In this document: positions 1,682-51,481 of the stretch, piece by piece | How the letters are laid out: each line of letters opens with the position of its first letter | How positions within the stretch are numbered: position 1 is the first letter of the stretch | Assembly (NCBI GenBank): GCA_045105815.1 | Contig: JBGCDX010000098.1 | Coordinates: 5,440-69,439, forward strand | Reading direction: 5' to 3' | DNA length: 64,000 bases | Origin: Gammaproteobacteria bacterium | GTDB taxonomy: Bacteria; Pseudomonadota; Gammaproteobacteria; UBA4575 | Program-made: the position numbers and the translations under genes | The notes under the pieces: model-generated | What the model was told of the DNA's origin: nothing | The model's input: the letters and a program-made list of their open reading frames with translations, nothing else | The model's database searches: none

Positions 1682-3175
1682 ATGACATTTAAATTTGACA
1701 ATACATATGCCAAAGAACTTGATGGTTTTTACACTGCGCATCAAAGTGCTGGAGCTCCAGCACCTAAAATCATAAAAGTAAATACGATGCTCGCTAATCA
1801 ACTGGGCATTGATATAAATAGCTTAAGCGAACAACAACAAATAGCGATCTTTTCCGGAAACCATGCACCAGAAGGCTCAGCGCCACTTGCACAAGTGTAT
1901 GCAGGACATCAGTTCGGTGGTTTTTCACAACAATTGGGTGATGGTCGTGCTTTGTTGTTGGGTGAAGTGGTAGATAAGAATGGTTTGCGCTTTGATATTC
2001 AACTAAAGGGCTCTGGTCGCACGCCTTATTCACGTGGCGGTGATGGCAAATCTGCGCTAGGACCGGTCTTGCGTGAATATATTATGAGTGAGGCGATGCA
2101 TGCATTAAATATTCCCACCACGCGCGCACTTGCCGCGGTGACAACAGGTGAAACCGTGATGCGCACCGAACCAACACCAGGTGGAGTATTCACACGCATT
2201 GCCGCAAGTCATATACGGATTGGTACATTCCAGTATTTTGCGGCACGACAAGAAATAGATCATATAAAAAAATTAGCGGATTATGCTATTGAACGACATT
2301 ACCCAAAAATTAAAGAAGAACTAGAAGAAGCTGATAATCTATATTTGTCTTTTCTCGCTCAAATTTGCAATGCTCAAGCTTCATTGGTTGCCCAATGGAT
2401 GTGTGTAGGATTTATTCATGGCGTAATGAATACAGACAACATGACTATTTCTGGTGAAACCATTGATTACGGGCCCTGTGCGTTTATGGACCATTTTGCT
2501 GCTGATACTGTTTATAGTTCGATCGATAAACAAGGTCGCTATGCGTATCACAATCAACCTTCTATTGCACAATGGAATCTTGCACGTTTGGCAGAGGCAT
2601 TATTGCCATTATTTGGTGATGAAACTGAGCAAGGCGTTGAACAAAGTATTAAACAAGCCACAGAAATTCTAGAAGCTTTCCCAGAACAATACACACAATA
2701 CTGGCTGATAGAAATGCGAAAAAAATTGGGGCTACACAGCAAAGAGGAAGAAGACCTAACACTTGCTAACGATTTATTAGCCAGCATGGATACTCAAAAA
2801 GTTGATTACACCCAATTATTCAATTACCTTGCGGATGTGTTGCAGGGCGAAGAGACACTGCCCCATACACTCTTTGATGATGCCACTGCCTTTACATTGT
2901 GGGTGGAACGATGGAAAGAGAGATTAGAACGAGATACTCATAATATTTCTGAAAGTGTTGAATTAATGAAGCAAGTGAACCCAGTTTATATTCCACGTAA
3001 CCACAAAGTGGAAGAAGCGATCGAGGCTGCAGTTGTTCACGAAGATTACTCTAAATTTGAAATATTAATAGACACTCTTAGCAATCCATATCAGTTACAA
3101 GATGGAAAAGACGATTACTCACAACCTGCACCAAAAGAATTTAGTGCGTCATTTAAAACTTTTTGTGGTACTTAG
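1682..3175 (+). CDS. selO: Protein adenylyltransferase SelO (YdiU/UPF0061 family)
   Basis: 497 aa. Contains the SelO hallmark stretch PLAQVYAGHQFGGFSQQLGDGRALLLGE...GSGRTPYSRGGDGKSALGPVLREYIMSEAMHALNIPTTRALA, which is near-identical in pattern to E. coli YdiU. Confidence 0.9.
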   Translation: MTFKFDNTYAKELDGFYTAHQSAGAPAPKIIKVNTMLANQLGIDINSLSEQQQIAIFSGNHAPEGSAPLAQVYAGHQFGGFSQQLGDGRALLLGEVVDKNGLRFDIQLKGSGRTPYSRGGDGKSALGPVLREYIMSEAMHALNIPTTRALAAVTTGETVMRTEPTPGGVFTRIAASHIRIGTFQYFAARQEIDHIKKLADYAIERHYPKIKEELEEADNLYLSFLAQICNAQASLVAQWMCVGFIHGVMNTDNMTISGETIDYGPCAFMDHFAADTVYSSIDKQGRYAYHNQPSIAQWNLARLAEALLPLFGDETEQGVEQSIKQATEILEAFPEQYTQYWLIEMRKKLGLHSKEEEDLTLANDLLASMDTQKVDYTQLFNYLADVLQGEETLPHTLFDDATAFTLWVERWKERLERDTHNISESVELMKQVNPVYIPRNHKVEEAIEAAVVHEDYSKFEILIDTLSNPYQLQDGKDDYSQPAPKEFSASFKTFCGT

Positions 3176-3201: not shown

Positions 3202-4056
3202 CTAGCCTGGTAGCACTTCTGCATTAATCGGCAAACTATCGTCTCTCGACCATTCATTCCATGAACCAAGATAATTACGCAAATGTTTAAAGCCTGCTAA
3301 GTGCATCGCTACTAATGTATTGGAAACACGTGCACCTTTGAAGCAATAAATAATAATGTCGTCATCGGGATAAAGCCCATATTCTGCACACATGGCACGT
3401 ACTTTTTCTGGTGATTTAAACAATGGCATCCCTTCTGTTCGTTCCATAAAGTTGTACCACTCTATCCAACGTGCACCAGGCAAACGACCCTTACGTGGCG
3501 CAAAATCAATGCCGTAGGGAGATGAACTTTCTCCCGTCCACTCCACTTTATCGCGATTGTCTAATAGCTTTACATTAGGGTCACTCAATGACGCCAATAC
3601 CTCATCTTTTGTCGCGAGGATATTGTCTTGAGTCTTCACTTTAAAATTTGATGACTCAGTTACGGGGACAATGTCATCAACTGCAAAGCTTTTTTTATTC
3701 CACATGGAAAAGCCACCATCTAAGATGCCGGTATCAGGATGACCCAAATAGGTTAAAAACCAGTAACCGCGGCATGACCCACCATAGCGACTATCAAATG
3801 CATCTTCATAGATAATTACTTTCTTCTCATGTGTAATACCTGCAGCAGAAAACAGTGCTTGAAATTTATCTTGTAATTCTTTTAGTCCTTTGTCAGTTGT
3901 TTCTGCAAGATAAAAGAATATATCAGGAATACTTACCGCACCTGGAATATGACTTTTTTTATATTCATCTTCGTCACGGATATCAACCACTATTGTATTA
4001 CCTTCAGAAATGAACTCTTGAAGCTCTTCTGGTGAGTAAAGTATTTTATTTGTCAT
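3202..4056 (-). CDS. Two-domain rhodanese sulfurtransferase (thiosulfate/3-mercaptopyruvate sulfurtransferase, SseA-like)
   Basis: 284 aa, ATG at 4054-4056. Two rhodanese-like halves. Active-site Cys lies in IIYCFKGARVS. Convergent with selO. Confidence 0.8.
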   Translation of the reverse strand: MTNKILYSPEELQEFISEGNTIVVDIRDEDEYKKSHIPGAVSIPDIFFYLAETTDKGLKELQDKFQALFSAAGITHEKKVIIYEDAFDSRYGGSCRGYWFLTYLGHPDTGILDGGFSMWNKKSFAVDDIVPVTESSNFKVKTQDNILATKDEVLASLSDPNVKLLDNRDKVEWTGESSSPYGIDFAPRKGRLPGARWIEWYNFMERTEGMPLFKSPEKVRAMCAEYGLYPDDDIIIYCFKGARVSNTLVAMHLAGFKHLRNYLGSWNEWSRDDSLPINAEVLPG

Positions 4057-4363: not shown

Positions 4364-4960
4364 ATGAAACTATATAACGCCGAGTTTTCTGGGAATTGCT
4401 ATAAAGTTCGTTTGCTTTTATCTCTTCTAAATATCGATCGGGAAATTGTACCAATCGACATTATCAACAAAGAACATAAGTCCCCTAGTTATTTGACCAA
4501 AAACCCATTAGGTGAGTTGCCGGCTCTTGAAGATGGTGCACATACGTTGCGTGACTCCCAAGCAATTCTTGTTTATCTTGCAAAAAAATATGGTAAGGAT
4601 GTTTGGCTACCAAACAACGCAAAAGAAATGGCTCTTGTTACGCAATGGTTATCTACTGCTTGTAACGATATTGCTCGTGGACCGATGGATGCAAGAGCTC
4701 ACTATAAATTTAAATTTGATGTCGATATTGAAAAAGCACGTGAAAAAAGCACGTCTATTTTAACCGTGATTAACAATCATCTTGCTGCTAGAGAATGGCT
4801 AGAACTGAATCGTGCAACCATCGCAGACATTGCTTGCTTTCCCTATATTGCACTTGCCCATGAAGGAAAAATATCTTTAGAGCCTTATACTAATATAAAA
4901 AAATGGATTACTAATATAAAAAAATTACCTAATTACATTTCAATGCCAGGATTAGATTAA
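4364..4960 (+). CDS. Glutathione S-transferase family protein
   Basis: 198 aa. N-terminal thioredoxin-like GST fold (MKLYNAEFSGNCYKVRLLLSLLNID...NPLGELPALEDGAHTLRDSQAILVYLAKKYG) and a helical C-terminal domain. Confidence 0.8.
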   Translation: MKLYNAEFSGNCYKVRLLLSLLNIDREIVPIDIINKEHKSPSYLTKNPLGELPALEDGAHTLRDSQAILVYLAKKYGKDVWLPNNAKEMALVTQWLSTACNDIARGPMDARAHYKFKFDVDIEKAREKSTSILTVINNHLAAREWLELNRATIADIACFPYIALAHEGKISLEPYTNIKKWITNIKKLPNYISMPGLD

Positions 4961-4964: not shown

Positions 4965-6347
4965 CTAATCCTCTATTACCCGCATGCTTTTCCATGGCCC
5001 AGTTTTAAATCTCCAGTAAAACACCGCACAGTAAATAACTACATTAATGGTGATGATCCACCATAGCCCATGCATCGTTGCATCAAAGTATTTAATATAT
5101 AAGTAACACGGAATAATTAATAAAAATATTGATATCACGATACTCATTTTCATAATGAAGCGTGTATCTCCCGCACCCTCTAACGCACCTAAAAACACTA
5201 AAAATATTGCATCAAATAAACAAAAGAATGCAACAAACCTTAAGAGCACTACTATCGTTTCAACACCGTTATCTAGTTCTTCTAGCCCACCATTTAAAGT
5301 AAATGGATAAATAAATATTTTAGGGATCGTTAAGTACATTACTGCGAGTACACCAAAAAATGCTAACGCTAAATGAATAGCTGACCAAGCTGCTTTTTCA
5401 GCCAACTCTGGTTTATTCTCACCTATTCTTTGACCCACTATCACTGCTACACCAATCATCATTCCAACCATTGGTAAAAATGAAAGCGCTTCAATATTGA
5501 AGGCAATATTGGTTGTCACACCTTCATGTGTACCCAATGTACCCACAAACATTAAAAAAGCAGTAAATGCTGACATGTCAATGAATAGCCTAAGCCCATT
5601 TGGCGCCCCAAAATAGATCAGTCTATTAAAAAGCTTTCGATTGAAATTCCAAGAAGCAAGTAAGTTAAATCGCTTGCGATATTTATTTTTAAAAATTAAA
5701 TATAGATACACTAATGACCCAGATATCACTGCTATATTACTAGCTGTTGCTGCACCTCGAATACCCATTTCAGGGAAACCATAATTTCCAAAAATTAAAG
5801 CATAGTCCAAGCCTATATTGATGACCGTGATGAGTATACTTACCCACATCACCACCAGAGTTTTACCTAACCCAGAAAAGAAGCTTGCTAGTGCATTGTT
5901 TAGCACCATAAACATAGCTGAGTACATTAGTATTTTAAAATACAAGGTCTCTTGCACTTGCACTTGTGGCTCATGACCCACTAAAGAGAAAAAACTTTCT
6001 GCTAAAAAGTAGGCAGGAATGATGATCAACAACGACATGGCGCTAAAATATATTCCCTGCCAAATAATTGCGCCGATTTTATTCTCTTCAGTTGCACCAT
6101 AATACTGGGCAACAAATGTATTTACATAGGCTGCTGTGCCAATAAAAAAACATAGCATTGCAAAGCTTGCCATCCCTGCTGGCATAGCGGCAGCTATTGC
6201 ATCAGGCGAATACCAAGCCAGAAACATTCGGTCAAAAAATAATAATATACTCCAAGCACCTGTACTTAAAATTAATGGAGTTGAAATTACTAATACTTCA
6301 CGATACCCACTTTCTTCAGACCAACGACGTTGCAAAGCTTTAAACAT
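4965..6347 (-). CDS. MATE family multidrug/sodium efflux transporter (NorM-like)
   Basis: 460 aa with about 12 predicted TM segments. MATE-like N-terminus MFKALQRRWSEESGYREVLVISTPLILSTG. Confidence 0.85.
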   Translation of the reverse strand: MFKALQRRWSEESGYREVLVISTPLILSTGAWSILLFFDRMFLAWYSPDAIAAAMPAGMASFAMLCFFIGTAAYVNTFVAQYYGATEENKIGAIIWQGIYFSAMSLLIIIPAYFLAESFFSLVGHEPQVQVQETLYFKILMYSAMFMVLNNALASFFSGLGKTLVVMWVSILITVINIGLDYALIFGNYGFPEMGIRGAATASNIAVISGSLVYLYLIFKNKYRKRFNLLASWNFNRKLFNRLIYFGAPNGLRLFIDMSAFTAFLMFVGTLGTHEGVTTNIAFNIEALSFLPMVGMMIGVAVIVGQRIGENKPELAEKAAWSAIHLALAFFGVLAVMYLTIPKIFIYPFTLNGGLEELDNGVETIVVLLRFVAFFCLFDAIFLVFLGALEGAGDTRFIMKMSIVISIFLLIIPCYLYIKYFDATMHGLWWIITINVVIYCAVFYWRFKTGPWKSMRVIED

Positions 6348-6403: not shown

Positions 6404-6435
6404 TAAAAAAAGCCTCGCATAGCGAGGCTTTTTTG
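6404..6435. terminator. Bidirectional rho-independent terminator (A-run, 8-bp GC-rich stem AGCCTCGC/GCGAGGCT, T-run)
   Basis: aaaaaaAGCCTCGCatAGCGAGGCTtttttt lies immediately downstream of the minus-strand His-rich gene. It also faces the plus direction. Confidence 0.6.
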
Positions 6436-6485: not shown

Positions 6486-6941
6486 TTAGCGACGATCTCG
6501 GTTGCGATCTCTATCCCGACGATCTCTATCTCTGTTTGAATCTCGACCCCTATGATTATCATGACCTCGATCATAGTGTCGATCATGTTTTACATGGTGT
6601 CTTCGATCACGGTACTTATCATAATGATGTCGGTCCCGCTTATAGTAACGACGTTCTTTATAATGGTGTCGATCACGATGACCATAATGGCGCTTATAAT
6701 CACGATGATAGTAATGATGCTTCTTGTGCTTGTAATAACGTTTACCATGACCACAACTTGGCCCATGCCTGTGTCCACGGTTATAACCATGTCCGTAATC
6801 GCTGTAACCAATTAGAACACTCCATGGATAATCGTTATAACCCACATTCCCATACACGCCTCCTCTGGCATGCGATGGAGCGGCGGCGGCCAATAACAGC
6901 ATCCCTACTGGTATTAGTATTAGCTTTTGCTTGATATTCAT
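6486..6941 (-). CDS. Secreted histidine/tyrosine/arginine-rich low-complexity protein (function unknown)
   Basis: The ORF track extends to a GTG at 6956. The ATG at 6941 is preceded by a perfect AGGAGA RBS. Signal peptide MNIKQKLILIPVGMLLLAAAAPSHA. The mature part is dominated by H/Y/R/K/D and ends in an RDRDRRDRDRNRDRR tail. Confidence 0.6.
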   Translation of the reverse strand: MNIKQKLILIPVGMLLLAAAAPSHARGGVYGNVGYNDYPWSVLIGYSDYGHGYNRGHRHGPSCGHGKRYYKHKKHHYYHRDYKRHYGHRDRHHYKERRYYKRDRHHYDKYRDRRHHVKHDRHYDRGHDNHRGRDSNRDRDRRDRDRNRDRR

Positions 6942-7355
6942 TCCATATCTCCTCACTACTTTTTGCTATCGATACCCCTATAACGTCTAGCATGGCTAAT
7001 TGGTTGACGCATACCTCAAAACCTTATTATTTTAAGCTTACTGGAATGCTAACTAACTGATAAATATGGTCATTGAATACGTTTAAATTTATCAGGTTTT
7101 TATTTAACCAATATAATTAACATCATTTTCAAATATACGCCGATGCATATTAAGGATGATTCGCTGAGCATCCATCTACACTAAAATGCTAGCCAGATTT
7201 TACGCCTGAAAAATCAATATTCGGTTATTTAAAGATGTCATCGAAATTGGTTAAAATTCAGCGCCAAATGTATTAAGATTCATACAGTTACGGGATACAA
7301 TCGCCTTCTCGGGAATCAAAGCCCATCGATTAATATTTAGGGAGAGAATATTTTA

Positions 7356-8657
7356 ATGACCACTCTTGATTATCCATCAAAAGAACAGCAAGCCGATACA
7401 CACGAGCTTGAACTTGGTCTTGAAATCCCTGTGCTTGAAGCATCTGAAAATGAATTAGCTTCACTTCGTTCAGCCTACGAAGCCGCAAGTTCTATACGTG
7501 ATGAATTACAAGTAAAATTAAAAACGGCTGTGGAATTCTCTAACGAGCAAGCCAAAGTTATAGAAGACATTAAAGATAGCCCATCGGAAGTTGCAGAATT
7601 AAAAGCTTTGCTTGGCAAAGCAACCGAACGAAACAATGTCCTCAGCACTAGTCTAAAAGAACGTGATATTGAAATTCAGGATGCAAATGATGAGATCACA
7701 TTCTTACGTGCAAGTGTTGCTGAACTAGAAGCGGTAAAAACTCAGCTCGATAACGCTGATGAAGATAATCGAGTTATTAGCAAGTCACTACAAGAACGTG
7801 AAACTGAGGTTGCAAACCTCAAGGAAAAAATATCAGTATTGCGATCAAAAATAATTGATATACAAGAAGTCAGAGAACAACTTAAACAAGCCGATAGCGA
7901 TAACCAAATATTAAGCAAAGAACTTGAAGACCAACGCATTCACTTAACTACACGAATTGAAGAGTTAGACAGCCAAATTGAATCGTTTGGCTCAATAAAG
8001 AAAGAATTTAATAAGCGTGGTACTGAGCTGAAACAGTTACAAGATGAATTAGGTCATTCTGATAATAAAATTTATCAACTTACCGGTGAAATTGAACAAC
8101 GCACCGAAAGAGAAAAACTATTACAGCAACAAATTGAAAAAGACATGAAGTCTCTCGAGTTACATGAAGTGAAAATACAGGCGCAAGAGCTTCAGCTAGA
8201 TGAGATGAATAGCTTACGCACCAATCTTATGGATCGAGAAAATCAAGTTACTGAACTCAATCAAAATCTAGAAGCTGAGCGTTCTCGTATTCGCTTACTT
8301 GAAACCGAAATGAGTGAAGCCCACATGGTAGTTAATAGCTTGCAAACTAAAATTGAAAGCGCCAACCAAGCTATACCAACTTTAGAACAAAATATACGTA
8401 TACGTGATGAGAAAATTTCCTCGCTAACAGAAGAAATAGCTGCTCATCAAGAACGGCTTGAAGCTTATATTAATTCTATTAACTTACGTGACAGCAAAAT
8501 CAACTCTCTTGAAAACGTCTTAAATCAGGCTAAAGAGCAGGTAAAACCACTACGCACTGAACTATCCACACAAGAAACTCGCATTCATGATCTTGAAAAA
8601 TTATTTCAAGAAGCCCAAAAGATTGTTCCCATTCCTAAGCGGGAAGAAGTTAAATAA
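7356..8657 (+). CDS. Cytoplasmic coiled-coil protein (no TM, no recognisable enzymatic domain); paralog of the N-terminal part of 27563-29503
   Basis: 433 aa. RBS GGGAGAG upstream. Heptad-rich sequence throughout. The segment EVAELKALLGKATERNN matches EIRELKTLLGQATQRYN in the 27563 protein. Confidence 0.6.
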   Translation: MTTLDYPSKEQQADTHELELGLEIPVLEASENELASLRSAYEAASSIRDELQVKLKTAVEFSNEQAKVIEDIKDSPSEVAELKALLGKATERNNVLSTSLKERDIEIQDANDEITFLRASVAELEAVKTQLDNADEDNRVISKSLQERETEVANLKEKISVLRSKIIDIQEVREQLKQADSDNQILSKELEDQRIHLTTRIEELDSQIESFGSIKKEFNKRGTELKQLQDELGHSDNKIYQLTGEIEQRTEREKLLQQQIEKDMKSLELHEVKIQAQELQLDEMNSLRTNLMDRENQVTELNQNLEAERSRIRLLETEMSEAHMVVNSLQTKIESANQAIPTLEQNIRIRDEKISSLTEEIAAHQERLEAYINSINLRDSKINSLENVLNQAKEQVKPLRTELSTQETRIHDLEKLFQEAQKIVPIPKREEVK

Positions 8658-13251: not shown

Positions 13252-14316
13252 CTAAAGTGAGATAATAACTTTTAGTCCTGGCTGGTTATCTTCCAGTGAT
13301 ATAGAAGCTTTGTGCAACTTCAAAACCGCATTGACCAGACTTAATCCCAAGCCTGATCCTTCTATATGTTGCTGCTCTTGATCACGATAAAAGCGATCAA
13401 AAGCTTTTTCAACCGAACCATGAGGGATGCCAGGTCCATTATCTTGAATAATAATTATTTTTTCATTACTACTATTTTCAAGAGAAATTTTTATCACGCC
13501 ATTATGCTGAGTAAACTTAATCGCATTATCTAGAAGATTTGCTATCACTTGAAAAAATAAATCACGATCTCCCTTATAACTAATTGCTTTACTATCGACC
13601 GTAAATGTTTGGTTTTTTTCTTCAGCTAGGGGCATATATAGATCAACTGCATCTTGCACCACTTTTCCCAGATCAAATTCCTCAAACCTAGAGCCCTGAC
13701 GCCCTGATTCCAAACTAGACAAACTCAGTAATGCGTTAAATGTTTTTAATAAACTATCAACGTCTTTAACTAATGATGCTTTTCCTTCAATCTCATCATA
13801 TTTTTCCAAACCACTTTTATTTGAATTCTGCTCAAGTTTGTTTCTTAATCTTGCAAGTGGCGTACGTAAATCATGTGCAACCGTATCTGTAATATGTTGC
13901 ACACCTTCCATTAAGGTTTCAATTTTTTCAAGCATTTCATTCAAGACGTCTCCCAGAAAACTAAGATCGTCCCAGCGTGAATCAATTTCGATTCGCTTAG
14001 TTAAATCACCTGTTGTAATTATTTCTTGCGCCGTATTCGCTATACGATTAATGCGTGTTACCACAAAAACACTTATCAGATAACCCATCACACCCATGAT
14101 TAGCAAAGCTAATATGCTGATAACACTAAGTAGCACAAAAGCTTGGCTCAGCTCTGTTTCACTCTGCTGATAGAATAGATATATAGAAATGCTCAATGCA
14201 ATTACAGCAAATGCCAATAAAACTGCAAATAATGTTGCGACTTTAAAGCTAGAGCTGCTTCTATAATGCCTTTTTTTATTGCTTTTAAGTGTCGTCAATG
14301 ATGTAGCCTGCGCCAC
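13252..14316 (-). CDS. Sensor histidine kinase (two N-terminal TM helices with a minimal periplasmic loop, HAMP, HisKA, HATPase_c)
   Basis: H-box VAHDLRTPLARL. G-boxes IQDNGPGIP and GSGLGLSLV. The ORF begins at a GTG that overlaps the RR stop by 32 nt. Confidence 0.85.
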   Translation of the reverse strand: MAQATSLTTLKSNKKRHYRSSSSFKVATLFAVLLAFAVIALSISIYLFYQQSETELSQAFVLLSVISILALLIMGVMGYLISVFVVTRINRIANTAQEIITTGDLTKRIEIDSRWDDLSFLGDVLNEMLEKIETLMEGVQHITDTVAHDLRTPLARLRNKLEQNSNKSGLEKYDEIEGKASLVKDVDSLLKTFNALLSLSSLESGRQGSRFEEFDLGKVVQDAVDLYMPLAEEKNQTFTVDSKAISYKGDRDLFFQVIANLLDNAIKFTQHNGVIKISLENSSNEKIIIIQDNGPGIPHGSVEKAFDRFYRDQEQQHIEGSGLGLSLVNAVLKLHKASISLEDNQPGLKVIISL

Positions 14317-14962
14317 GCATAGTTTTAATGAGTTGTTTATCAGAGTTTTTATCTATTTTTTGTCGTAAGCGACTTATATGCACATCAATCACATTTGTCT
14401 GTGGATCAAAATGATAGTCCCATACATATTCTAGTAACATAGTGCGCGTTACGATTTGCCCTTTATGTCTTAAAAGGTATTCAAGTAATCTAAATTCTGT
14501 TGCTTGTAGAGAGACTTCTGCACCATTACTTTTGACTTTACGTGTCAATAAATCCAGCTCAACGCCTTGTGCTGATAAACATGTTTCTACATCTGCAGAC
14601 TTTCTATTTCTTCTATCTAGCGCTTCAATTCTTGCCAACAGTTCAGAAAAGGCAAAAGGTTTAACTAAATAGTCATCACCACCCGCTCGCAAACCCTTTA
14701 CACGGTCATCCACTTCACCAAGAGCACTGAAAATTAATATTGGCGTTATATTGCCAGCACCTCGTAACGTTTTAATAATTGTGAGGCCATCTATACCTGG
14801 AAGCATTCTATCAATAAGTAATACATCGTATTGCTCGGTTGTGCTTAAAAACAAGCCATCATTACCATCGGCTGCAGTATCTACAACATGACCTATTTCA
14901 GTTAGGCCGTTACTTACATAATCAAGTAGTTCTTGGTCATCTTCTATACAAAGGATACGCAT
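14285..14962 (-). CDS. OmpR-family response regulator (receiver plus winged-helix)
   Basis: Trimmed to MRILCIEDDQELL (ATG at 14960-14962). The longer ORF adds an unlikely hydrophobic leader. C-terminal trans_reg_C-like domain ...LLEYVWDYHFDPQTNVIDVHISRLRQKI. Confidence 0.9.
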   Translation of the reverse strand: MRILCIEDDQELLDYVSNGLTEIGHVVDTAADGNDGLFLSTTEQYDVLLIDRMLPGIDGLTIIKTLRGAGNITPILIFSALGEVDDRVKGLRAGGDDYLVKPFAFSELLARIEALDRRNRKSADVETCLSAQGVELDLLTRKVKSNGAEVSLQATEFRLLEYLLRHKGQIVTRTMLLEYVWDYHFDPQTNVIDVHISRLRQKIDKNSDKQLIKTMRGAGYIIDDT

Positions 14963-15003
14963 AATAATCACTATGATACTGGCTACAGACAAATATCCAA
15001 TGT

Positions 15004-15017
15004 TTGTAAAATTACAA
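15004..15017. promoter_or_regulatory. Palindrome TTGTAAAATTACAA in the divergent RR / lipid-modification-cluster intergenic region
   Basis: Perfect 6-bp arms with a 2-bp centre. Lies 42 bp upstream of the RR start codon (14962) and 81 bp upstream of the cluster start (15098). Confidence 0.3.
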
Positions 15018-15097
15018 AAATTTAATGCTCGGTTAAGGTCAATTTTAAGCAAGAAAGTACATACTAGAGGGGATATTTAACACACAAACCAATAACC

Positions 15098-15667
15098 ATG
15101 CAGATAAAGCACTTAAGTTATTCATTACTTTTACTATGGTTTTTTTCATCGGCATCATCGGCGACTAGTAACCAAGTATTCAGTCCATTACCTAACCAAG
15201 TGCTAGAAAGATGGAATAATTTTTCATTCGTTGGTGAAACCACGTTACGTCGTTATGGATTCCACGTGTATGACGCTTCTTTTTGGATAATGGGAGATAA
15301 ATCAGACAATTTTAGCTCTTCTGATATTTTATCTAACCATTCGTATGCTTTAAGCATTACCTATGCACGAAAAATAAGTGCACAACAATTATTGTCTAGT
15401 ACAAAAAAAGAATGGCAAAGACTAGGGTTTGCGAAGCGATACCCTCTCAATGCATGGTTGATCATGTTAGAAAACATTTGGCCAAGTGTTGAGAAAGGAG
15501 ATCAATTAATCGTGGTAGTAACTACGCAAGGAAAAACAACATTCTTTAATAAAAGCAATTCACTGGGCACCATTGATGATTCAAAATTTGGCCCAGCATT
15601 TTTATCTATCTGGCTAGACGAAAATTCACGCTTTAAGAAGAACCGTGAGGAACTATTAGGTGAGTAA
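15098..15667 (+). CDS. Chalcone-isomerase-like family secreted protein
   Basis: 189 aa with a signal peptide. VGETTLRRYGFHVYDASFWI resembles the Chalcone_3 family core. First gene of the eight-gene overlapping cluster. Confidence 0.5.
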   Translation: MQIKHLSYSLLLLWFFSSASSATSNQVFSPLPNQVLERWNNFSFVGETTLRRYGFHVYDASFWIMGDKSDNFSSSDILSNHSYALSITYARKISAQQLLSSTKKEWQRLGFAKRYPLNAWLIMLENIWPSVEKGDQLIVVVTTQGKTTFFNKSNSLGTIDDSKFGPAFLSIWLDENSRFKKNREELLGE

Positions 15668-16208
15668 ATTACAATTAATAAGACATTTAACTAGTTTTTT
15701 AGCAATAGTACTGATTTTAGGCTGCAGTACTACCACTTCAGATTATCAAGATACTCAACCTGAATTTGACCTTAAAGAGTATTTCACTGGTGAACTCAAA
15801 GGCTGGGGCTTAATAAAAAATTATCAAGGGAAAGTTACCAAACGGTTTACCGTAGAAATGACTGGCACATGGAAAGAAAACAAAGGTGTCTTATATGAAT
15901 TATTTACATACCAAGATGGCACTACACAAGAGCGTACGTGGTACTTAACGAAACAAGATAACAATATAAATACTGGTACTGCTAGTGATGTTGTCGGTGA
16001 AGCATCAGGCACACAAGAAGGTTTTTCATTTAATTGGAATTATGACTTGTTATTTGAGTCAGATGGCAAACAAATTCAAGTTCATTTACAAGATTGGTTA
16101 TACCAAGTAGACGACCATGCCGTTATTAGCGAAGCAAAAATTAAAAAGTTTGGTATCAATGTTGGCGAAGTGATCATATTTATACTCAAACAGGATGCAC
16201 AACAATGA
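15660..16208 (+). CDS. DUF3833-like lipoprotein
   Basis: GTG start overlaps the upstream gene by 8 nt. Lipobox LILGCSTTTS. The EYFTGELKGWG motif region is typical of DUF3833 (from memory). Confidence 0.5.
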   Translation: MSKLQLIRHLTSFLAIVLILGCSTTTSDYQDTQPEFDLKEYFTGELKGWGLIKNYQGKVTKRFTVEMTGTWKENKGVLYELFTYQDGTTQERTWYLTKQDNNINTGTASDVVGEASGTQEGFSFNWNYDLLFESDGKQIQVHLQDWLYQVDDHAVISEAKIKKFGINVGEVIIFILKQDAQQ

Positions 16209-16630
16209 GCTCACCACAAATTGAACAATTCATAAAAAATATGAATTCCATCCAACATGAAAATGCTAAACATGTGTTAGCAAATATATATACCGATGAT
16301 GTTGTTTTCATTGACCCTGTAAAAACTATAAAAGGTGTAGAAAACTTAACAAAGTACTTCGAAGACCTTTATAAAAGCGTCTCTTCTTGCCATTTCAAGT
16401 TAACTAATAATGTACCTAATAATAATCGCTATTCATTGGAATGGATAATGACTCTACAACATAAGAAAATATCAAATAATCAAGAGATTGAGTTGAATGG
16501 AGCATCATTTATTGAATTTATCGACGATAAAGTTTGTTACCACCGTGACTACTATGATCTCGGCGCTTTAGTTTATGAACGTATTCCGATACTTGGCTCA
16601 GTAATTAAAAAAATTCGTCATGCTATCTAA
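16205..16630 (+). CDS. NTF2/SnoaL-like family protein
   Basis: 141 aa. Composition is compatible with the alpha+beta cone fold. Overlaps the upstream gene by 4 nt (ATGA). Confidence 0.55.
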   Translation: MSSPQIEQFIKNMNSIQHENAKHVLANIYTDDVVFIDPVKTIKGVENLTKYFEDLYKSVSSCHFKLTNNVPNNNRYSLEWIMTLQHKKISNNQEIELNGASFIEFIDDKVCYHRDYYDLGALVYERIPILGSVIKKIRHAI

Positions 16631-17426
16631 TAAGACACAAAAACATTTTGAAAATAAAGTGATCTGGGTGACCGGTGCTTCATCAGGCATTGGCCGAGCA
16701 TTGGTCATTATGCTATCTAACATAGATTGTAAAATATATATTTCTTCACGCTCTGAAGATAATTTACATAAGACAATCGCCCAATGCCGAGACTCAAACA
16801 AAAAAAATATAGTCGTTCTAGCAGGAGATTTAACAAACAAACAAGTTAATCAAGAAATTCTAAAGAATATTGAACAAACCTCTGGAAAATTGGATATAGC
16901 AGTCTTAAATGCAGGTTCTTGTGAGTATGTTGATATAAATAATTTTGACAGCTCGTTATTTGAACGTCAGATAAAGACAAATTTTTTAAGTATGGTGTAT
17001 GGAATTGAGGCAGCCCTGCCTTTATTAAAGAAATCCGTAGAAGCCCAGCTAATAGGAATGAGTAGTACTGCTGCATATCTGGGTCTACCACGAGCTGAAG
17101 CTTATGGTGCTACCAAAGCTGCAATACGCAATATGTTCGCTGCCTTACGTGTAAGTTTACAGGCTCACAAAATAAGCAGTTCGGTAATCTGCCCAGGTTT
17201 TGTTGAAACAGAGCTTACTGCAAAAAATGATTTTGATATGCCTGCGATGATAACGGCTGTTAAATCTGCTGAATATATACTTAATGGAATCGCCAAACAT
17301 AAACAAGAAATACATTTTCCAAAGCGATTTAGCCTAACACTAAAACTAATAGCGTCTTTACCTAACCCAGTGGTTAGTTGGCTAATAAGAAAAACCATAC
17401 CAAAAAGCAGCAATACCAACACATGA
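16620..17426 (+). CDS. Short-chain dehydrogenase/reductase (SDR)
   Basis: VTGASSGIGRAL cofactor motif. Catalytic YGATKAA (YxxxK). Overlaps the upstream gene by 11 nt. Confidence 0.85.
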   Translation: MLSNKTQKHFENKVIWVTGASSGIGRALVIMLSNIDCKIYISSRSEDNLHKTIAQCRDSNKKNIVVLAGDLTNKQVNQEILKNIEQTSGKLDIAVLNAGSCEYVDINNFDSSLFERQIKTNFLSMVYGIEAALPLLKKSVEAQLIGMSSTAAYLGLPRAEAYGATKAAIRNMFAALRVSLQAHKISSSVICPGFVETELTAKNDFDMPAMITAVKSAEYILNGIAKHKQEIHFPKRFSLTLKLIASLPNPVVSWLIRKTIPKSSNTNT

Positions 17427-18700
17427 AGATTGCAATAATAGGTTCAGGTATTGCTGGTCTAACTGCCGCACATTTATTGCACCCAGACCATGACATTACT
17501 GTTTATGAATCAGATAGCTATGTTGGTGGGCATGCGAATACTATCGACGTAACTATGAAAGATACCACTATTTCTATAGATACCGGTTTTATTGTATTCA
17601 ATGACTGGACCTATCCCAACTTTGAAAAACTAATTAACTCCTTAGATATTCAGATTCAAAACTCAGAAATGAGTTTTTCGGCAATATGTGAAGAAAGCGG
17701 ATTTGAATGGTCTGGTAATGGCTTAAAAGGTTTAATTTTTAATTCTGATAACTGGAAACAACTAAAGCCTTATCAAATATTTTATGACATTGTTAGATTT
17801 AAGAAATTAGCATTAGCATTTTTAAACCAGAAAAATGAACAAATGACTCTTGGTGATTTTTTAGCTACTAATGAGTTCAGCGCACCCTTCATCAAGTATT
17901 ACATTTTACCTATGGGTGCAGCTATATGGTCTTCTACACTTGAGCAGATCAATGAATACCCGTGCAAAAGTTTTTTAACGTTTTTCAAAAATCATGGCTT
18001 ATTAAATTTAAAAATCCGACCACAATGGAAAACTGTTGTCGGCGGATCTAAACGATATGTCACTGAACTAATCAAACCATTTGAAAATAAAATTCATACC
18101 AATAGTGCAGTAACCAAAGTAAAGAGAGTTGCAGGTCGAGTTGAAATCTTCTCAACTGGACGCAGTCCTGCGTATTTTGATCATGTCTTCTTTGCTTGTC
18201 ATAGTGATCAAACATTAGCTTTATTAGACCATTGCAGCTCAAATGAAATTAATATTTTAGGTGATATCCAATATCAAGATAATATTGCTGTTTTGCATAC
18301 CGATGAATCAACCATGCCAAAAAGAGAAACTGCCTGGTCGTCTTGGAATTACTTTATCCCCAAAGAAAATACAGGCAATGCGAATGTAACTTACTATATG
18401 AATCGCTTACAGAACCTAAATTGTAAGAAAAATTACTTTGTAACACTAAACCCTTGCCAAAATATACATTCATCCAAAGTTTTAAAAACTATTCACTACA
18501 AGCACCCTGTATTTGATACTCCTGCAATTAATGCACAAAAGCACTATGAAACCATCAACGGAAAAGAGAATACATGGTTCTGTGGCGCTTATTGGCGTAA
18601 TGGTTTTCATGAAGATGGTGTATGGAGCGCAATCCGCGCTGTTGATAACTTTAACATGTATTTAAAAGATGAAGAGCTGCATTTACAAAGGGCGAGTTAG
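17423..18700 (+). CDS. NAD(P)/FAD-dependent oxidoreductase (amine-oxidase / phytoene-desaturase-like)
   Basis: Start moved to MKIAIIGSGIAGLTAAHLL (Rossmann GxGxxG). Forms an ATGA overlap with the SDR stop. About 425 aa. Confidence 0.8.
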   Translation: MKIAIIGSGIAGLTAAHLLHPDHDITVYESDSYVGGHANTIDVTMKDTTISIDTGFIVFNDWTYPNFEKLINSLDIQIQNSEMSFSAICEESGFEWSGNGLKGLIFNSDNWKQLKPYQIFYDIVRFKKLALAFLNQKNEQMTLGDFLATNEFSAPFIKYYILPMGAAIWSSTLEQINEYPCKSFLTFFKNHGLLNLKIRPQWKTVVGGSKRYVTELIKPFENKIHTNSAVTKVKRVAGRVEIFSTGRSPAYFDHVFFACHSDQTLALLDHCSSNEINILGDIQYQDNIAVLHTDESTMPKRETAWSSWNYFIPKENTGNANVTYYMNRLQNLNCKKNYFVTLNPCQNIHSSKVLKTIHYKHPVFDTPAINAQKHYETINGKENTWFCGAYWRNGFHEDGVWSAIRAVDNFNMYLKDEELHLQRAS

Positions 18701-19406
18701 ACATCAGCGCTATGCACCTCGCGTGCATGCATTCACGTATTCATTATTTATGATGTATGTGGATTTAGATGAATTACCTACATTATTCAACAAACATTTT
18801 TTATGGGCAGTAAATAAAACCAATTTGGCCTCATTTCATCGCAATGATCATCATGGCGACAATGTGTCTCTTGCTAATTCAATACGTGAGCTAGTTTTTG
18901 ATAAATCTGGAGAAAATGTAGAAGGACCAATTAGACTGCTTACTCACTTTCGTTATTTTGGCTATGTATTCAATCCTATCAGTATGTACTTTTGTTATGA
19001 CGCTGCTGGAGAAAATGTGACCCATGTTGTAGCTGAAGTAATGAATACACCTTGGAAAGAACAACATTGTTATGTGCTGTCAAACAAACAGCATGATCAA
19101 GTTATTTCAGCTAAACATAAAAAAGAATTTCATGTGTCTCCTTTTATGCATATGAATATGGAGTACCACTGGAATATTCATACCCCTGACCAACATATGA
19201 ATATAAATATTGAGAATTGGTCTGATAATAAAATGGTTTTTGATGCATCCATGTACTTAGAAAAGATTGAATTATCCACCTCTAACTTAAGAAATGTTTT
19301 ATTTAATTTTCCTTTAATGACATTAAAGGTTACTACGATGATTCATTTTGAGGCACTAAAACTTTGGATCAAGGGGATCCAATATATACCCCACCCTAAA
19401 AACTAA
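18669..19406 (+). CDS. DUF1365 family protein
   Basis: N-terminus MKSCIYKGRVRHQRYAPRVHAFTYSLFMMYVDLDELP matches the DUF1365 signature. Overlaps the upstream gene by 32 nt. Confidence 0.75.
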   Translation: MKSCIYKGRVRHQRYAPRVHAFTYSLFMMYVDLDELPTLFNKHFLWAVNKTNLASFHRNDHHGDNVSLANSIRELVFDKSGENVEGPIRLLTHFRYFGYVFNPISMYFCYDAAGENVTHVVAEVMNTPWKEQHCYVLSNKQHDQVISAKHKKEFHVSPFMHMNMEYHWNIHTPDQHMNINIENWSDNKMVFDASMYLEKIELSTSNLRNVLFNFPLMTLKVTTMIHFEALKLWIKGIQYIPHPKN

Positions 19407-19418
19407 CAGGTTTCAAGA

Positions 19419-20672
19419 ATGTCGATAGTCCCTAAATATAAAAATACACAAAATATTCGTAGCGAATTGAGCTGGTCTGAACAAATAGTATGCGCAGCTT
19501 TATTTAAAAAACTTGATCTAATTAATGTTGGATTTTTGCAAGTTCATGTAAATGATATTGTCTATGATTTTGGCATCAAAGAGATGCAAACCGAGTTACA
19601 TGCTGTAATTCATGTAATTGATACGCGTGTGTTCAAAGCCATACTATTTGGCGGTGAGCCTGCAGCAGGAAATACATACGTAAAAGGTTGGTGGTCTTCA
19701 GACAACTTAATCAATGTAATGCGTTTATTCACACTAAACCGAGAAGTATTGTTTTCATTTAAATCTGGGTTTGCTTCATTAGCTAAACGCGCTTATGCGA
19801 TAACACATTTTACTAACAAAAATAACCAACAAGGATCAAAGCGAAATATAACTGCTCACTATGATATTGGTAATGACTTATACAAGTTATTTTTAGATGA
19901 AAGCATGATGTACTCTTCCGCATGCTTCACCCGACAACACACAACACTGGAAGATGCCTCAGCGCACAAGCTGAATATAATTTGTGAGAAATTGGAGCTA
20001 AACTCAACTGACCATGTGCTAGAAATTGGTAGCGGCTGGGGTGGCTTTGCCATCTACGCTGCACAACACTACGATTGCAAAGTTACCACAACCACTATTT
20101 CAGATGAGCAGTACTCATATCTGCATGACAAAGTCACTAGCCATAATTTAACAAATAAAATTACAATATTAAAACAAGATTATCGCAACCTTGAAGGCCA
20201 GTATGACAAATTAGTTTCGATTGAAATGATCGAATCTGTAGGACATCAATTCATAAATGAATATTTCTCCATTTGCAGTAGATTACTAAAACCAAATGGA
20301 GCGATGTTAATTCAGGCCATCACTATTTCAGACTATCTGTACGATCACTACATTCAATCAATGGATTTTATACGTAAATATGTTTTTCCTGGTGGCAGCT
20401 TACCAAGCATGTCATCAATGCTTAGCGCTATAGCCAGCAGTAGCGACTTAACCTTATTTCATAGTGAAAGCTATGCGTCCAGTTACGCTAAAACATTAAA
20501 AATTTGGCATCAACGATTTATTACTAATAAAGAAAAAGTAATAGAACTGGGTTATGGAAATGCATTTATTCGCTTATGGGAGTATTACTTAAAGTACTGT
20601 CAAGCAGGTTTTGAAGAAAGAGTTATCGATGTACAACAAATTGTATTAAAGAAACCAGAAAATCGTTTCTAA
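19419..20672 (+). CDS. Cyclopropane-fatty-acyl-phospholipid-synthase-like SAM-dependent methyltransferase
   Basis: 417 aa. SAM motif VLEIGSGWGGFAIYAA. CFA-synthase-type N- and C-terminal regions. Confidence 0.85.
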   Translation: MSIVPKYKNTQNIRSELSWSEQIVCAALFKKLDLINVGFLQVHVNDIVYDFGIKEMQTELHAVIHVIDTRVFKAILFGGEPAAGNTYVKGWWSSDNLINVMRLFTLNREVLFSFKSGFASLAKRAYAITHFTNKNNQQGSKRNITAHYDIGNDLYKLFLDESMMYSSACFTRQHTTLEDASAHKLNIICEKLELNSTDHVLEIGSGWGGFAIYAAQHYDCKVTTTTISDEQYSYLHDKVTSHNLTNKITILKQDYRNLEGQYDKLVSIEMIESVGHQFINEYFSICSRLLKPNGAMLIQAITISDYLYDHYIQSMDFIRKYVFPGGSLPSMSSMLSAIASSSDLTLFHSESYASSYAKTLKIWHQRFITNKEKVIELGYGNAFIRLWEYYLKYCQAGFEERVIDVQQIVLKKPENRF

Positions 20673-20679
20673 ATAAATA

Positions 20680-21231
20680 ATGAAAAATAACTTAAGGTTC
20701 TTAATATTTAACTTTGTTGGACTTCAAGTGACATGGGCCGCATGCGCCTATGGAGCAACCCATTCCTTTCCAACGCTTGGTCTTTATGTAGGTTTAGCAT
20801 ACATAATCTTACATTTTTATTTGAGCAAACAGCGTATACGCGATCTTAAAATTATGCTTATCATAGCTGTAGTTGGAATTATTCTTGATATGATACTTAC
20901 GCAAATAAATATTTTGTCATTCCCAATTGCCACAAATGATTCTTTGATTATTCCTGCATGGTTAATGGCTTTGTGGTTTGTATTCGCCTTAATGGTACCT
21001 TATAGCCTGTATTGGTTAAGTAAAAACTTAAAGATTGCTGCTATTGCTGGAGCCATTGGAGGTAGCTTTAGTTACTTTCTTGGCCACCAACTAGATGCAC
21101 TACAGTTAGCAGAACCTTTAATAATGAGCGTAGGAATTTATTTCCTAAAATGGGGGATTATATTTCCTGCAGCATTACTAGTCGTTAAACACATTACGAA
21201 TAATCAGCTAAACATAAAGACCACTGCCTAA
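20680..21231 (+). CDS. Small polytopic membrane protein (DUF2878-like), last gene of the cluster
   Basis: 183 aa with 4-5 TM helices. Begins 8 nt after the methyltransferase stop. Confidence 0.45.
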   Translation: MKNNLRFLIFNFVGLQVTWAACAYGATHSFPTLGLYVGLAYIILHFYLSKQRIRDLKIMLIIAVVGIILDMILTQINILSFPIATNDSLIIPAWLMALWFVFALMVPYSLYWLSKNLKIAAIAGAIGGSFSYFLGHQLDALQLAEPLIMSVGIYFLKWGIIFPAALLVVKHITNNQLNIKTTA

Positions 21232-22995: not shown

Positions 22996-24912
22996 CTAAG
23001 AACCAATAATATCCCCATCCTTACGCGTAATCACAATAGTAGAATCACGTGGAATAGTGACACCATCAAATGGCGCTGGGAAGTTTGTAAGAACAGGATC
23101 TCCATTACCAGGATGCTGTGTGTTTATAAACATAGTTTTGCGATTTGGCGTTGTAGTAATTCCAGTTATTTCATCACTCGCCACACCAGTGAATAAACGA
23201 CGCAAATCTCCTGTGCTTAAATCTGCGACCAACATCTGATTATTAAGCCCATCCTTTTGCCCACCGTCAGTTTGAATAAACAAGCGGCCATCTGGATCCG
23301 CCCATAAACCATCTGGATTAATGAACGTATCTTCCGTTCCATGTGTAGTTTCTGCAATTAAGTATATATCCCACTTAAAGTGAATTCCGGTGTGTCTTTT
23401 GCTTTCTTTCCAACGAATAATATGACCATCTGCATTGGGTGCCAATGGGTTAGCTGCATTAGCTTCAGTACGTAAACTGTTATTTGTTAATGTGCAATAC
23501 ACAGTCCCACTTGGTCCAACTGTAGTCCACTCAGGCCTATCCATTGGTGTCGCACCCACAATGTCTGCTGCAATACGTGCGTAAGTAAGCACTTCCGCCT
23601 GACTACTGAAACGTTGAGCGATATTAGGATTATCAATTGTAAGCTCTAACCAATCCCCACTACCGTCATCATTAAAACGGGCGGCATATAACTTACCATG
23701 ATCTAACGGGCTTTTGCCTTCGCGGCGCATTTGCCGCCAATTTCCTTCAGATACAAACTTATAAATATAATCAAAACGTTGATCATCGCCCATGTATCCT
23801 ACAACGCAGCCACCTAAACCAACCGTAAGTGCAATACCTTCATGCTTTATTCGACCAAGTGCAGTGCGTTTAACAGGTATAGAGGTTCCATCAAAAGGAT
23901 CAATTTCAACGACCCAACCAAAGCGGTTTTCCTCATTCTGGAAGTCAGGATCAGACAAATCAAAACGTTTATCAAAGTTTTGCCAACCATATCCAAATCC
24001 TCGTTCCGAAAAACCATAACGCTCTTGTTCTGTTGTTGGCAACCAAGAATTATTTTGATTAGTCACACCAAAATAACCATTGAAGTTTTCTTCACACGTT
24101 AGATAAGTACCCCAAGGCGTATAACCGTTGGCACAATTATTTACCGTGCCTAATGGACTGTTTCCGTTTGGAGTAGCAAGTAAATCGGATTCTGCAACGG
24201 GGCCACTAAACTCTACCGGTGTATTTACATGAATACGTCTTGCAAAAACACTCTTAACTTGACGCCATTGTCCTTGATGTTTTTTTAGCTCTACAACTGA
24301 TACACCATGGGCATGCTGCATTACACGCACATCTTCAAGACTGTCCGGTAGATTTTTACCTAATACATGTGATGTCCTGCCAAATTCATGGTTAACACAC
24401 AGCACACCATTGCGGTTACCGCCTTTGTAAGCATCTTTATTAGTATTTCTGATCCAGTCTAGATCGTCATCCCAATCCAAATCATCATTCCAACCACAAC
24501 GAGGCTTACTTGAATCCTTAACCGGAAAGTAATGCATGCCATCATGTCCGATTCCAATTTGCTTAGCTTGATCAGTCGCATTGGGTGGGTAGTTATATGC
24601 TGGACCTCCTGGCTCTAATGGCTCGCCCCATGGGATCAGCACATCCCATTGATATTCAGGCGCAATACTGGGCCATGGGCCAGTACCTTCTGCAACTGTC
24701 ACAGGAGTAAAGCCAACTTTAGCACCACAATGACTCCCAGCAAATGCTGCGAAAGATGCTGTCGCGAAAAATGCGGTAGAAGCTGCACCTAACCCCCCTT
24801 TTAATAGAGTACGCCTAGATAGGTTAACCTCTAAAACTTTAGCAAATGGGATATTTGTGGAATAATTGCAAACAACTTCATCACTGAGATCTTGTTTAAT
24901 TACTCGAGACAT
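22996..24912 (-). CDS. phoX: PhoX-family alkaline phosphatase (Tat-secreted, DUF839 beta-propeller)
   Basis: 638 aa. Twin-arginine motif SRRTLLKGGLGAASTAF. Size and the Gly/Asp/Trp-rich propeller repeats are typical of PhoX. Confidence 0.8.
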   Translation of the reverse strand: MSRVIKQDLSDEVVCNYSTNIPFAKVLEVNLSRRTLLKGGLGAASTAFFATASFAAFAGSHCGAKVGFTPVTVAEGTGPWPSIAPEYQWDVLIPWGEPLEPGGPAYNYPPNATDQAKQIGIGHDGMHYFPVKDSSKPRCGWNDDLDWDDDLDWIRNTNKDAYKGGNRNGVLCVNHEFGRTSHVLGKNLPDSLEDVRVMQHAHGVSVVELKKHQGQWRQVKSVFARRIHVNTPVEFSGPVAESDLLATPNGNSPLGTVNNCANGYTPWGTYLTCEENFNGYFGVTNQNNSWLPTTEQERYGFSERGFGYGWQNFDKRFDLSDPDFQNEENRFGWVVEIDPFDGTSIPVKRTALGRIKHEGIALTVGLGGCVVGYMGDDQRFDYIYKFVSEGNWRQMRREGKSPLDHGKLYAARFNDDGSGDWLELTIDNPNIAQRFSSQAEVLTYARIAADIVGATPMDRPEWTTVGPSGTVYCTLTNNSLRTEANAANPLAPNADGHIIRWKESKRHTGIHFKWDIYLIAETTHGTEDTFINPDGLWADPDGRLFIQTDGGQKDGLNNQMLVADLSTGDLRRLFTGVASDEITGITTTPNRKTMFINTQHPGNGDPVLTNFPAPFDGVTIPRDSTIVITRKDGDIIGS

Positions 24913-25097
24913 GCAGTAGCCCTCTCTTCAGATTTCAAATTCATTAGGGCTTTAACCTTGTTTTTCACTTGTTTAATAATTTCTACCGTAATATTAATTA
25001 TAACCTACCATCTTGTTAACCTTATTTGACGATTAACAAAAAAAGATTGGCTAGTGGACTTATAAGACAATAAATAGCTAGATATATATCAGACACT

Positions 25098-44162: not shown

Positions 44163-44189
44163 TACTTCTTAAAATACTGTGTACGGAGG

Positions 44190-44615: not shown

Positions 44616-44842
44616 TTTTTTATCCCCTAGTTCTCGCCCCAAATTCTGTCAATTCTTTAAATAAACATTAAAATTCTGCATAGATACTTTTAAATCGTTA
44701 GAGCTTGACCGCCTGTCCACTCACATGAAGTAGTCATCATCTTATTATAAATATAAGCTTAATAAGTCACCTAAAATACCGTTTAACTAGGCAATGATTC
44801 ATATATAACTAATCAGCTTAAAAGGAAGTTTGTTAAACACAT

Positions 44843-48194: not shown

Positions 48195-48221
48195 CAAGTA
48201 AGCGATAAGAGTTAAAACTTA

Positions 48222-51468: not shown

Positions 51469-51481
51469 AGGCAAAAGTAAA

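Follow-up and report, generated by a model that had tools for sequence, protein, structure and literature searches.

What does a short, strongly biased open reading frame (ORF) on the minus strand of a gammaproteobacterial contig encode, and is it a gene at all? The frame in question lies at positions 6486 to 6941 of a 64,000-nucleotide stretch of contig JBGCDX010000098.1, which was analyzed as a whole and is called the window here. An earlier note on this DNA had described it as the gene of a secreted, low-complexity protein that might bind metals or polyanions. The results presented below indicate that the product belongs to an undescribed family of exported, predicted disordered proteins rich in His, Tyr and Arg, found in uncultured gammaproteobacteria, and that its gene is a candidate target of an extracytoplasmic function (ECF) sigma factor.

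The coding sequence comprises 151 amino acids and a stop codon and starts with the ATG at 6941; the listed ORF is longer (6486 to 6956, minus strand, with a GTG start), and the ATG is the start used. The MNIK beginning is common to all aligned orthologues, and the ribosome-binding site AGGAGA (6948 to 6953, minus strand) 6 nt upstream of the ATG is conserved in them, so frame, ribosome-binding site and start codon were read correctly before. Codon analysis was carried out on four genomic loci from metagenome-assembled genomes (MAGs) labelled uncultured Thiotrichales or Gammaproteobacteria. Codon alignments of the gene with all four, guided by the protein sequences, give a ratio of nonsynonymous to synonymous substitution rates (dN/dS) of 0.07-0.16 in the annotated frame and 0.01-0.14 for residues 26 to 66, and 55 of the 74 nucleotide differences from locus L001 fall on third codon positions. 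The corresponding ratio of proportions of differences (pN/pS) is 0.11-0.27 in the sense frame, compared with 1.1-2.5 in the plus-strand frames at 6536 to 6934 and 6552 to 6815, which makes the overlapping plus-strand ORFs artefacts, as had been suspected for those at 6536 to 6934. A low ratio is otherwise seen only in the antisense frame whose wobble positions coincide with those of the gene, and that frame is interrupted by stops, with no more than 36 open codons. Conservation of another frame in relatives had been named as an outcome that would speak against the gene; selection favours the annotated frame. That the ORF is merely a frame kept open by biased DNA composition, as the several open frames on both strands at this locus might suggest, is refuted by this analysis of dN/dS and frame-wise pN/pS and has a negligible probability: purifying selection is confined to the annotated frame, conservation extends to its start codon and ribosome-binding site as well as to promoter and terminator, and homologues down to about 40% identity retain the same architecture. 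On the evidence of sequence comparison, the ORF is a genuine gene under purifying selection.

The encoded protein begins with MNIKQKLILIPVGMLLLAAAAPSHA, followed after the predicted cleavage site by RGGVYGNVGY. Residues 1 to 25 (6867 to 6941) read as a Sec-type signal peptide, with MNIKQK as the n-region, LILIPVGMLLLAAAA as the h-region and PSHA as the c-region, and cleavage is predicted after SHA. Then follow a conserved motif at the mature N-terminus (residues 26 to 53, RGGVYGNVGYNDYPWSVLIGYSDYGHGY, 6783 to 6866), which is the signature of the family, a region rich in His, Tyr, Arg, Lys and Asp (residues 54 to 130, 6552 to 6782) with units of the [KR]HHY type, classed as disordered from its composition and its modelling confidence, and a C-terminus of RD repeats (residues 131 to 151, RGRDSNRDRDRRDRDRNRDRR, 6489 to 6551), which is clade-specific; all of these are on the minus strand. 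The mature part of 126 amino acids contains 22% Arg, 16% His, 14% Tyr, 13% Asp, 11% Gly and 7% Lys. Arg, His, Tyr, Asp and Lys together make up 72% of it. It has a grand average of hydropathy (GRAVY) of -2.5, an isoelectric point (pI) of 10.3, no Met and a single Cys (Cys63, 6753-6755), and with 29% Arg and Lys it carries a net charge of about +20 at pH 7 and +40 at pH 5. The biased composition noted earlier was thus confirmed, with the exception of the first 28 or so mature residues, which are not of low complexity. No DNA tandem repeat was found by Tandem Repeats Finder, which indicates that the bias is not due to recent repeat expansion, and when all six frames of the window were scanned, no second comparable His- and Tyr-rich stretch or core motif came to light.

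The family to which this protein belongs is rare. Searches for homologues gave 11 matches in a collection of 5.8 billion proteins and 15 among 1.84 billion representatives, while a profile of the N-terminal 64 residues gave 24; the three sets overlap and amount to about 45 distinct sequences of 90-173 amino acids. The nearest relatives with a named source come from MAGs of uncultured Thiotrichales or Gammaproteobacteria, and for some relatives the names of samples and records, taken at face value, suggest a marine and possibly host-associated origin. Carriers of the family include the MAGs CAZFEP01, CALAJL01, CAYXVH01, JABDMD01 and GCA_020357715.1 as well as contigs of ERZ25072999 and ERZ26052130, and the gene is also present in the JGI samples 3300002039 and 3300024521. 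In accordance with the earlier note, the protein could not be placed in any known family: Pfam and NCBIfam gave no match (E <= 0.01 / 0.1), a PDB profile search with the N-terminal alignment gave a chance match only (E = 2.7), tblastn against plasmids gave none, and a look-up did not find the exact sequence of the window protein on record. Our literature search on periplasmic disordered proteins rich in His and Tyr found no precedent.

All members share the same order of parts, namely a signal peptide, the motif (G)VYGNVGYxDYPWxILIGYxDYG and a variable, basic, His/Tyr-rich tail, and the window protein, which is the first row of the alignments, shows all three in that order. The signal peptide residues S23 and A25, at positions -3 and -1, are nearly invariant, and this architecture, kept throughout the family, together with the low dN/dS supports the earlier view that the gene encodes an exported protein. 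Residues 26 to 53, about 28 amino acids, are the most conserved segment: in 34 sequences G31, G34 and P39 are invariant and N32, I44, G45, Y46 and Y53 nearly so. This motif had been missed in the earlier note. The tails contain 4-28% His (15-27% in most members), 11-23% Tyr and roughly 15-30% Arg and Lys, with a pI of about 10, and the sum of His and Tyr, 30% in the mature window protein, is similar family-wide. The RD-repeat C-terminus named in the earlier note is not supported as a defining feature: it is limited to the close clade of the window and missing from most of the family, distant members included, and many distant members end in YC(P/R/H)(Y/H) with one Cys. The family protein evolves much faster than its neighbours, as in locus L005 its identity is 46%, compared with 86% for the neighbouring MATE transporter and 64% for the coiled-coil gene on the other side.

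Within the tails the order of residues is not random. In comparison with composition-preserving shuffles [KR]HH, HHY and DR are enriched with z-scores of 9.2, 9.7 and 11, values which are inflated by the relatedness of the sequences; [KR]HH and HHY occur about 2-2.5-fold more often than in the shuffles, HxH is depleted, and RHHY is present in 28 of 43 family tails. AlphaFold models built with 12 and with 34 aligned sequences have a predicted local distance difference test (pLDDT) below 50 over essentially the entire mature part, contain a helix at residues 3 to 19, i.e. in the signal peptide, and none elsewhere. The mature part is accordingly predicted by these models to be intrinsically disordered, and the earlier statement that no globular domain can be recognized still stands. 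No fold was modelled for the conserved motif in the monomer with either alignment; its alternating Gly, aromatic and aliphatic residues make it beta-prone, and it probably mediates self-association or docking to a partner.

The combination of AAC and CGT is a signature of promoters recognized by ECF sigma factors. Upstream of the gene, on the minus strand, we found a -35 element GTCAAC (7003 to 7008, extended cGTCAACC) and, 17 nt after it, a -10 element CGTTAT (6980 to 6985) of which CGTT is invariant. The alignment of upstream regions reads GTCAAC, a variable spacer of 16-17 nt, CGTT(A/G)T, then (G)TATCGATAGCGAAAA and the ribosome-binding site; across 10 distinct orthologous regions neither GTCAAC nor CGTT changes, while spacer and flanks do. 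A single match to GTCAAC-N16-18-CGTT is present in the 64-kb window (0.25 are expected by chance), and 15 of the 18 loci have exactly one each, which in every case precedes the gene. Among these loci are the distant subfamilies L016, L017 and L018, which have different neighbours.

These elements coincide with those of SigAb from Acinetobacter baumannii, whose core promoter was defined by saturation mutagenesis as GTCAAC and CGTT with an optimal spacer of 17 bp (PMC12153292). The core elements GTCAAC and CGTT(AT) and the 17-bp spacer are identical, and an A/T-rich stretch lies upstream in both. They also agree with the predicted consensus of the ECF37 group, xGTCAAC and xxCGTTAT (Table 4 in PMC13492112), a group represented by RpoR-RsrA-RsrB of Cupriavidus metallidurans. 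With both the -35 hexamer and the -10 element of ECF37/SigAb type present at a spacing of 16-18 nt, the gene qualifies as a candidate member of an ECF37/SigAb-type regulon. SigAb is induced by copper, is required for tolerance of Cu and Ni, and was reported to be specific to Acinetobacter (PMC12153292); the hosts here are MAGs labelled Thiotrichales, not Acinetobacter. The direct targets of SigAb are sigAb-aabA-aabB, relA and the small RNA SabS, none of which is an exported His-rich protein (PMC12153292).

Three other readings of the upstream region were rejected. The plus-strand GTTGACG could be taken as the -35 of a sigma-70 promoter for the divergent gene, but as the main explanation this was set aside: the matching -10 is not conserved, CGTT is invariant at a fixed spacing, and the motif is also kept in L016 and L017, although there the gene upstream has the same orientation. 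A CsoR/RcnR-like operator (ATAGGGGTAT) was discarded on account of its G tract, which is not conserved in L005, L006 and L015. The promoter also differs from the ChrR type, which is TGATCC-N16-CGTA (PMC5507510).

A further conserved element, GTATCGATAGCAAAAA, with the palindrome TATCGATA (6960 to 6975, minus strand), coincides with the predicted transcription start or follows it directly; its conserved columns in the upstream alignment are T67, T69, C70, A74 and an A run, and it could be an operator or an element of the RNA 5' end, where the 5' untranslated region starts. The Rfam and tRNA scans of the window gave no matches, so no known leader or riboswitch is involved. Downstream, between the gene and the MATE gene, a symmetric hairpin of 13 pairs with an A run and a T run (6406 to 6434, no strand assigned) forms an intrinsic terminator, as the earlier note had held, and equivalent hairpins follow the gene in L002 and L001. 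The locus is a single-gene transcription unit with its own predicted promoter, ribosome-binding site, coding sequence and terminator.

From all these results we consider it highly probable that the gene encodes an exported stress protein driven by an ECF sigma factor. A sigma factor with ECF37/SigAb specificity would direct a single-gene transcript with a 5' untranslated region of about 35 nt, counted from the predicted start, and because a promoter of this type precedes the gene, the protein would be made when extracytoplasmic stress releases the sigma factor. The product would then be exported by Sec and would remain unfolded, its mature chain consisting of the conserved Gly/Tyr/hydrophobic motif and a fast-evolving tail of [KR]HHY-like units and R/D runs. 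In the periplasm the imidazoles, often as His-His pairs beside Tyr, would bind and buffer Cu, Ni and Zn, a role which we put forward tentatively as the most likely one, at slightly under even chances. The acting sigma factor, the signal that would release it, the final location of the protein and its ligand are what we infer in this scheme. By analogy, buffering of metals is consistent with the response to copper of SigAb, the sole characterized sigma factor of this promoter type. The earlier idea of a metal or polyanion binder remains plausible and gains support from regulation, and the hypothesis of metal binding is strengthened by the SigAb-like promoter core and by the enrichment of [KR]HHY in the tail.

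Several observations weigh against this reading. Met is absent from the mature protein and Cys occurs once, which sets it apart from periplasmic binders of Cu(I) and Ag(I), its net charge of about +20 disfavours binding of cations and favours anions, and its high content of Tyr, Arg and Lys is not needed for metal binding; together with gene neighbourhoods that lack a consistent metal theme, these points are the reason why metal buffering is rated no higher. The HxH spacing is depleted in the tails, and the inflated shuffle scores mentioned above also count here. As to regulation, the promoter motif is missing in the subfamily linked to a major facilitator superfamily (MFS) transporter (L012-L014), and a scan of 50 window ORFs yielded no gene for a sigma factor. 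The likeness of the promoter does not transfer the copper signal of Acinetobacter to this host.

Comparison with known proteins leaves the family on its own. SilE and PcoE, known as metal sponges, are small, Sec-exported, disordered, His-containing periplasmic proteins of metal stress that bind Cu(I) or Ag(I) through His/Met motifs, and they serve as our working model, as the window protein likewise has a conserved Sec signal, read from its sequence, and is predicted to be disordered. It differs from them in showing no sequence homology, as no Pfam or NCBIfam match was obtained, in lacking Met in the mature part and in being strongly basic and rich in Tyr and Arg; neither their family profile nor their His/Met motifs were found in it. 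SmbP of Nitrosomonas europaea is a small, His-rich periplasmic protein that binds several Cu, Ni or Zn ions and is helical with heptad repeats; going by this general description it is set apart from the window protein, which is predicted to be disordered and has [KR]HHY as its repeat unit. CpxP, Spy and ZraP resemble it as small periplasmic proteins tied to an envelope-stress regulon, but they are folded, helical LTXXQ proteins under two-component control, whereas the window protein is predicted to be disordered, has no helices beyond the signal peptide and gave no LTXXQ match in Pfam. A Pfam match to RcnB (PF11776), a family of periplasmic accessory proteins of efflux, was not found either, and relatives do not consistently keep an efflux pump beside the gene.

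The neighbourhood in the window consists of genes for SelO (1682 to 3175, plus strand), a rhodanese (3202 to 4056, minus), a GST (4364 to 4960, plus) and the MATE transporter (4965 to 6347, minus) and, divergently, for a cytoplasmic coiled-coil protein of 433 amino acids (7356 to 8657, plus; Pfam PUMA_CC, E = 3.7e-11). The latter is the constant neighbour in the close clade, with 433 amino acids (436 in L015) and 59-91% identity; the literature searched on this PUMA_CC protein gave no useful information. It shares with the gene an intergenic region of 414 bp, which may hold its promoter. MATE is the downstream gene in the window, in L002-L005 and in L015. Its place is taken by a convergent DUF1501 gene in L001 and L006-L008, and distant members have other neighbours again, so that a functional link to MATE is not supported. 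In the window and L002 the terminator stands between the gene and MATE, and in L001 it stands between the gene and the one for DUF1501. We regard the neighbouring MATE gene and the RD tail as incidental. Distant members are found with an MFS transporter and gltBD, with formate-dehydrogenase-like genes, with soxYZ or with urease accessory genes, and as these contexts differ, no consistent functional partner emerges from the neighbourhood.

Two of the distant contexts contain further small secreted proteins. Directly downstream of the family member in L016 (5564 to 5893) a secreted protein of 109 amino acids rich in His, Tyr, Arg, Gly and Asn (containing GKRYYGHGNRYYNKHAYSYGHRNRHYGKRYY) is encoded, which may be a divergent tandem paralogue. 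In L017 (4365 to 4703) and L018 (4337 to 4675) a secreted coiled-coil protein of 112 amino acids follows 21-34 nt downstream of the family gene; its mature N-terminus is YxYCP(H/E)HD and the upstream family member ends in YC(H/P)(H/Y), so that each of the two has a single Cys, a pairing which suggests that they form a disulfide or share a metal site. In L012-L014 the family gene lies between gltD and the MFS transporter. The genes found around these members, namely gltB, gltD, one for a GAF-GGDEF-EAL protein and one for glycerate kinase, are also present in the window (38129 to 49385), where only a membrane protein of 141 amino acids (44190 to 44615) is encoded at the corresponding place; the six-frame scan found no second family copy at this gltD/GGDEF position.

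Elsewhere in the window a plus-strand cluster (15098 to 21231) encodes Chalcone_3-like, DUF3833, short-chain dehydrogenase/reductase (SDR), FAD amine oxidase, DUF1365, cyclopropane-fatty-acid (CFA) synthase and DUF2878 proteins, and beside it, on the minus strand (13252 to 15052), lie divergent genes for an OmpR-type response regulator and a histidine kinase. We also noted a PhoX alkaline phosphatase near a staphylococcal-nuclease homologue (22996 to 25595, minus), a pair which suggests scavenging of phosphate from nucleic acids, a second long coiled-coil protein of 646 amino acids (27563 to 29503, plus) with weak similarity to the crescentin rod below the Pfam cutoff, and a YbjQ_1 gene, i.e. 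one with a putative heavy-metal-binding domain, directly followed by that of an M48 peptidase (51458 to 52824, plus).

Other roles of the exported protein have to be weighed against buffering of metals. The charge and composition of the mature chain could be attributed to a cationic, aromatic polymer that coats or cross-links lipopolysaccharide phosphates, phospholipids, peptidoglycan, polyphosphate or extracellular DNA and thereby stabilizes the stressed envelope. The net positive charge, which doubles between pH 7 and pH 5, the 29% of Arg and Lys together with 14% of Tyr, a pI of about 10 in nearly all members and an envelope-stress promoter of ECF type all fit such a polyanion binder, an option also raised in the earlier note. 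It would leave unexplained why His is retained at 15-27% in most members and why [KR]HHY is enriched, and no envelope-biogenesis genes are consistently adjacent, so we regard it as rather unlikely.

Two of the residues that singlet oxygen and hypohalous acids chiefly attack in proteins are His and Tyr, and with these two making up 30% of the mature protein, a share similar across the family, it could act as a sacrificial oxidant scavenger or form an oxidatively cross-linked (dityrosine) matrix in the periplasm. Genes for GST, rhodanese, SelO and a DCC1-like thiol oxidoreductase are nearby, and the cluster at 15098 to 21231 is partly shared with the singlet-oxygen sigmaE-ChrR core regulon, to which SDR, amine oxidase and CFA synthase belong in other bacteria (PMC5507510). 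The promoter of the gene is, however, not of ChrR type, no ChrR-type promoter was found at or near that cluster, the neighbourhood could simply reflect synteny, and the content of Arg, Lys and Asp would not be explained; this role is improbable.

Of comparable, that is low, probability is a protein that forms condensates upon stress, with phase separation in the periplasm driven by metal, pH or polyanions and a protective phase that sequesters metals or oxidants. Tyr and Arg (36%) would serve as stickers and His (16%) as a switch for pH or metal, and the conserved motif might nucleate the process. Predicted disorder, a composition kept despite divergence and non-random [KR]HHY units are compatible with such a protein, which would be a bacterial, ECF-controlled counterpart of coacervating His/Tyr-rich proteins such as the HBPs of the squid beak.

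A small, predicted periplasmic protein under a conserved ECF promoter, with a short docking-like motif beside a variable tail, also recalls feedback modulators that bind an anti-sigma factor or sensor and are titrated or degraded under stress, as in the pairs of CpxP with CpxA and of AabB or RseB with anti-sigma factors; small periplasmic partners are present in the SigAb and RpoR operons. No adjacent sigma/anti-sigma pair exists in any of the 18 loci and the extreme, conserved composition would be unnecessary for this role, which makes it more doubtful still. Human histatin 5, a eukaryotic peptide of 24 amino acids dominated by His, Lys, Arg and Tyr, has His-His pairs, an N-terminal copper- and nickel-binding (ATCUN) site and metal binding linked to its function. 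The likeness in composition to this and other His-rich cationic peptides, as they are generally described, and the possibly host-associated origin of some relatives raise the thought of an exported antimicrobial or a peptide directed at hosts or competitors; there is no homology, the mature window protein begins with RGG and has no His at position 3, neither a way through the outer membrane nor nearby genes for processing, immunity or dedicated export are present, the MATE neighbour is not conserved, and control by a stress sigma factor fits self-protection better, so that we give this thought very little credence. A structural role in a periplasmic inclusion, such as the sulfur-globule envelope of sulfur-oxidizing Thiotrichales, was suggested by a small, Sec-exported protein with Gly and Tyr in MAGs labelled Thiotrichales and by one distant member near soxYZ, behind which a secreted coiled-coil protein that recalls SgpD is encoded, but is the least credible of these roles, as extreme hydrophobicity is ascribed to SgpA, SgpB and SgpC (PMC10386293), the GRAVY of -2.5 led us to reject a sulfur-globule identity, and no sox or dsr genes are among the window ORFs scanned.

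The impact of these findings is limited by hosts that are uncultured, by the rarity of the family and by a function deduced from sequence. The extreme and conserved His/Tyr/Arg composition without a predicted fold nevertheless makes the protein a compact model for disordered periplasmic binders of metals or polyanions and a possible source of metal-binding or pH-switchable peptide tags. To our knowledge, sigma factors of the ECF37 type are almost uncharacterized, and SigAb, the one studied member, is without a known effector protein among its direct targets. A SigAb-like promoter signature upstream of one small exported protein across several subfamilies from uncultured gammaproteobacteria points to a lineage-conserved effector, and the family thereby offers a concrete handle on the signals that the ECF37 sigma group answers.

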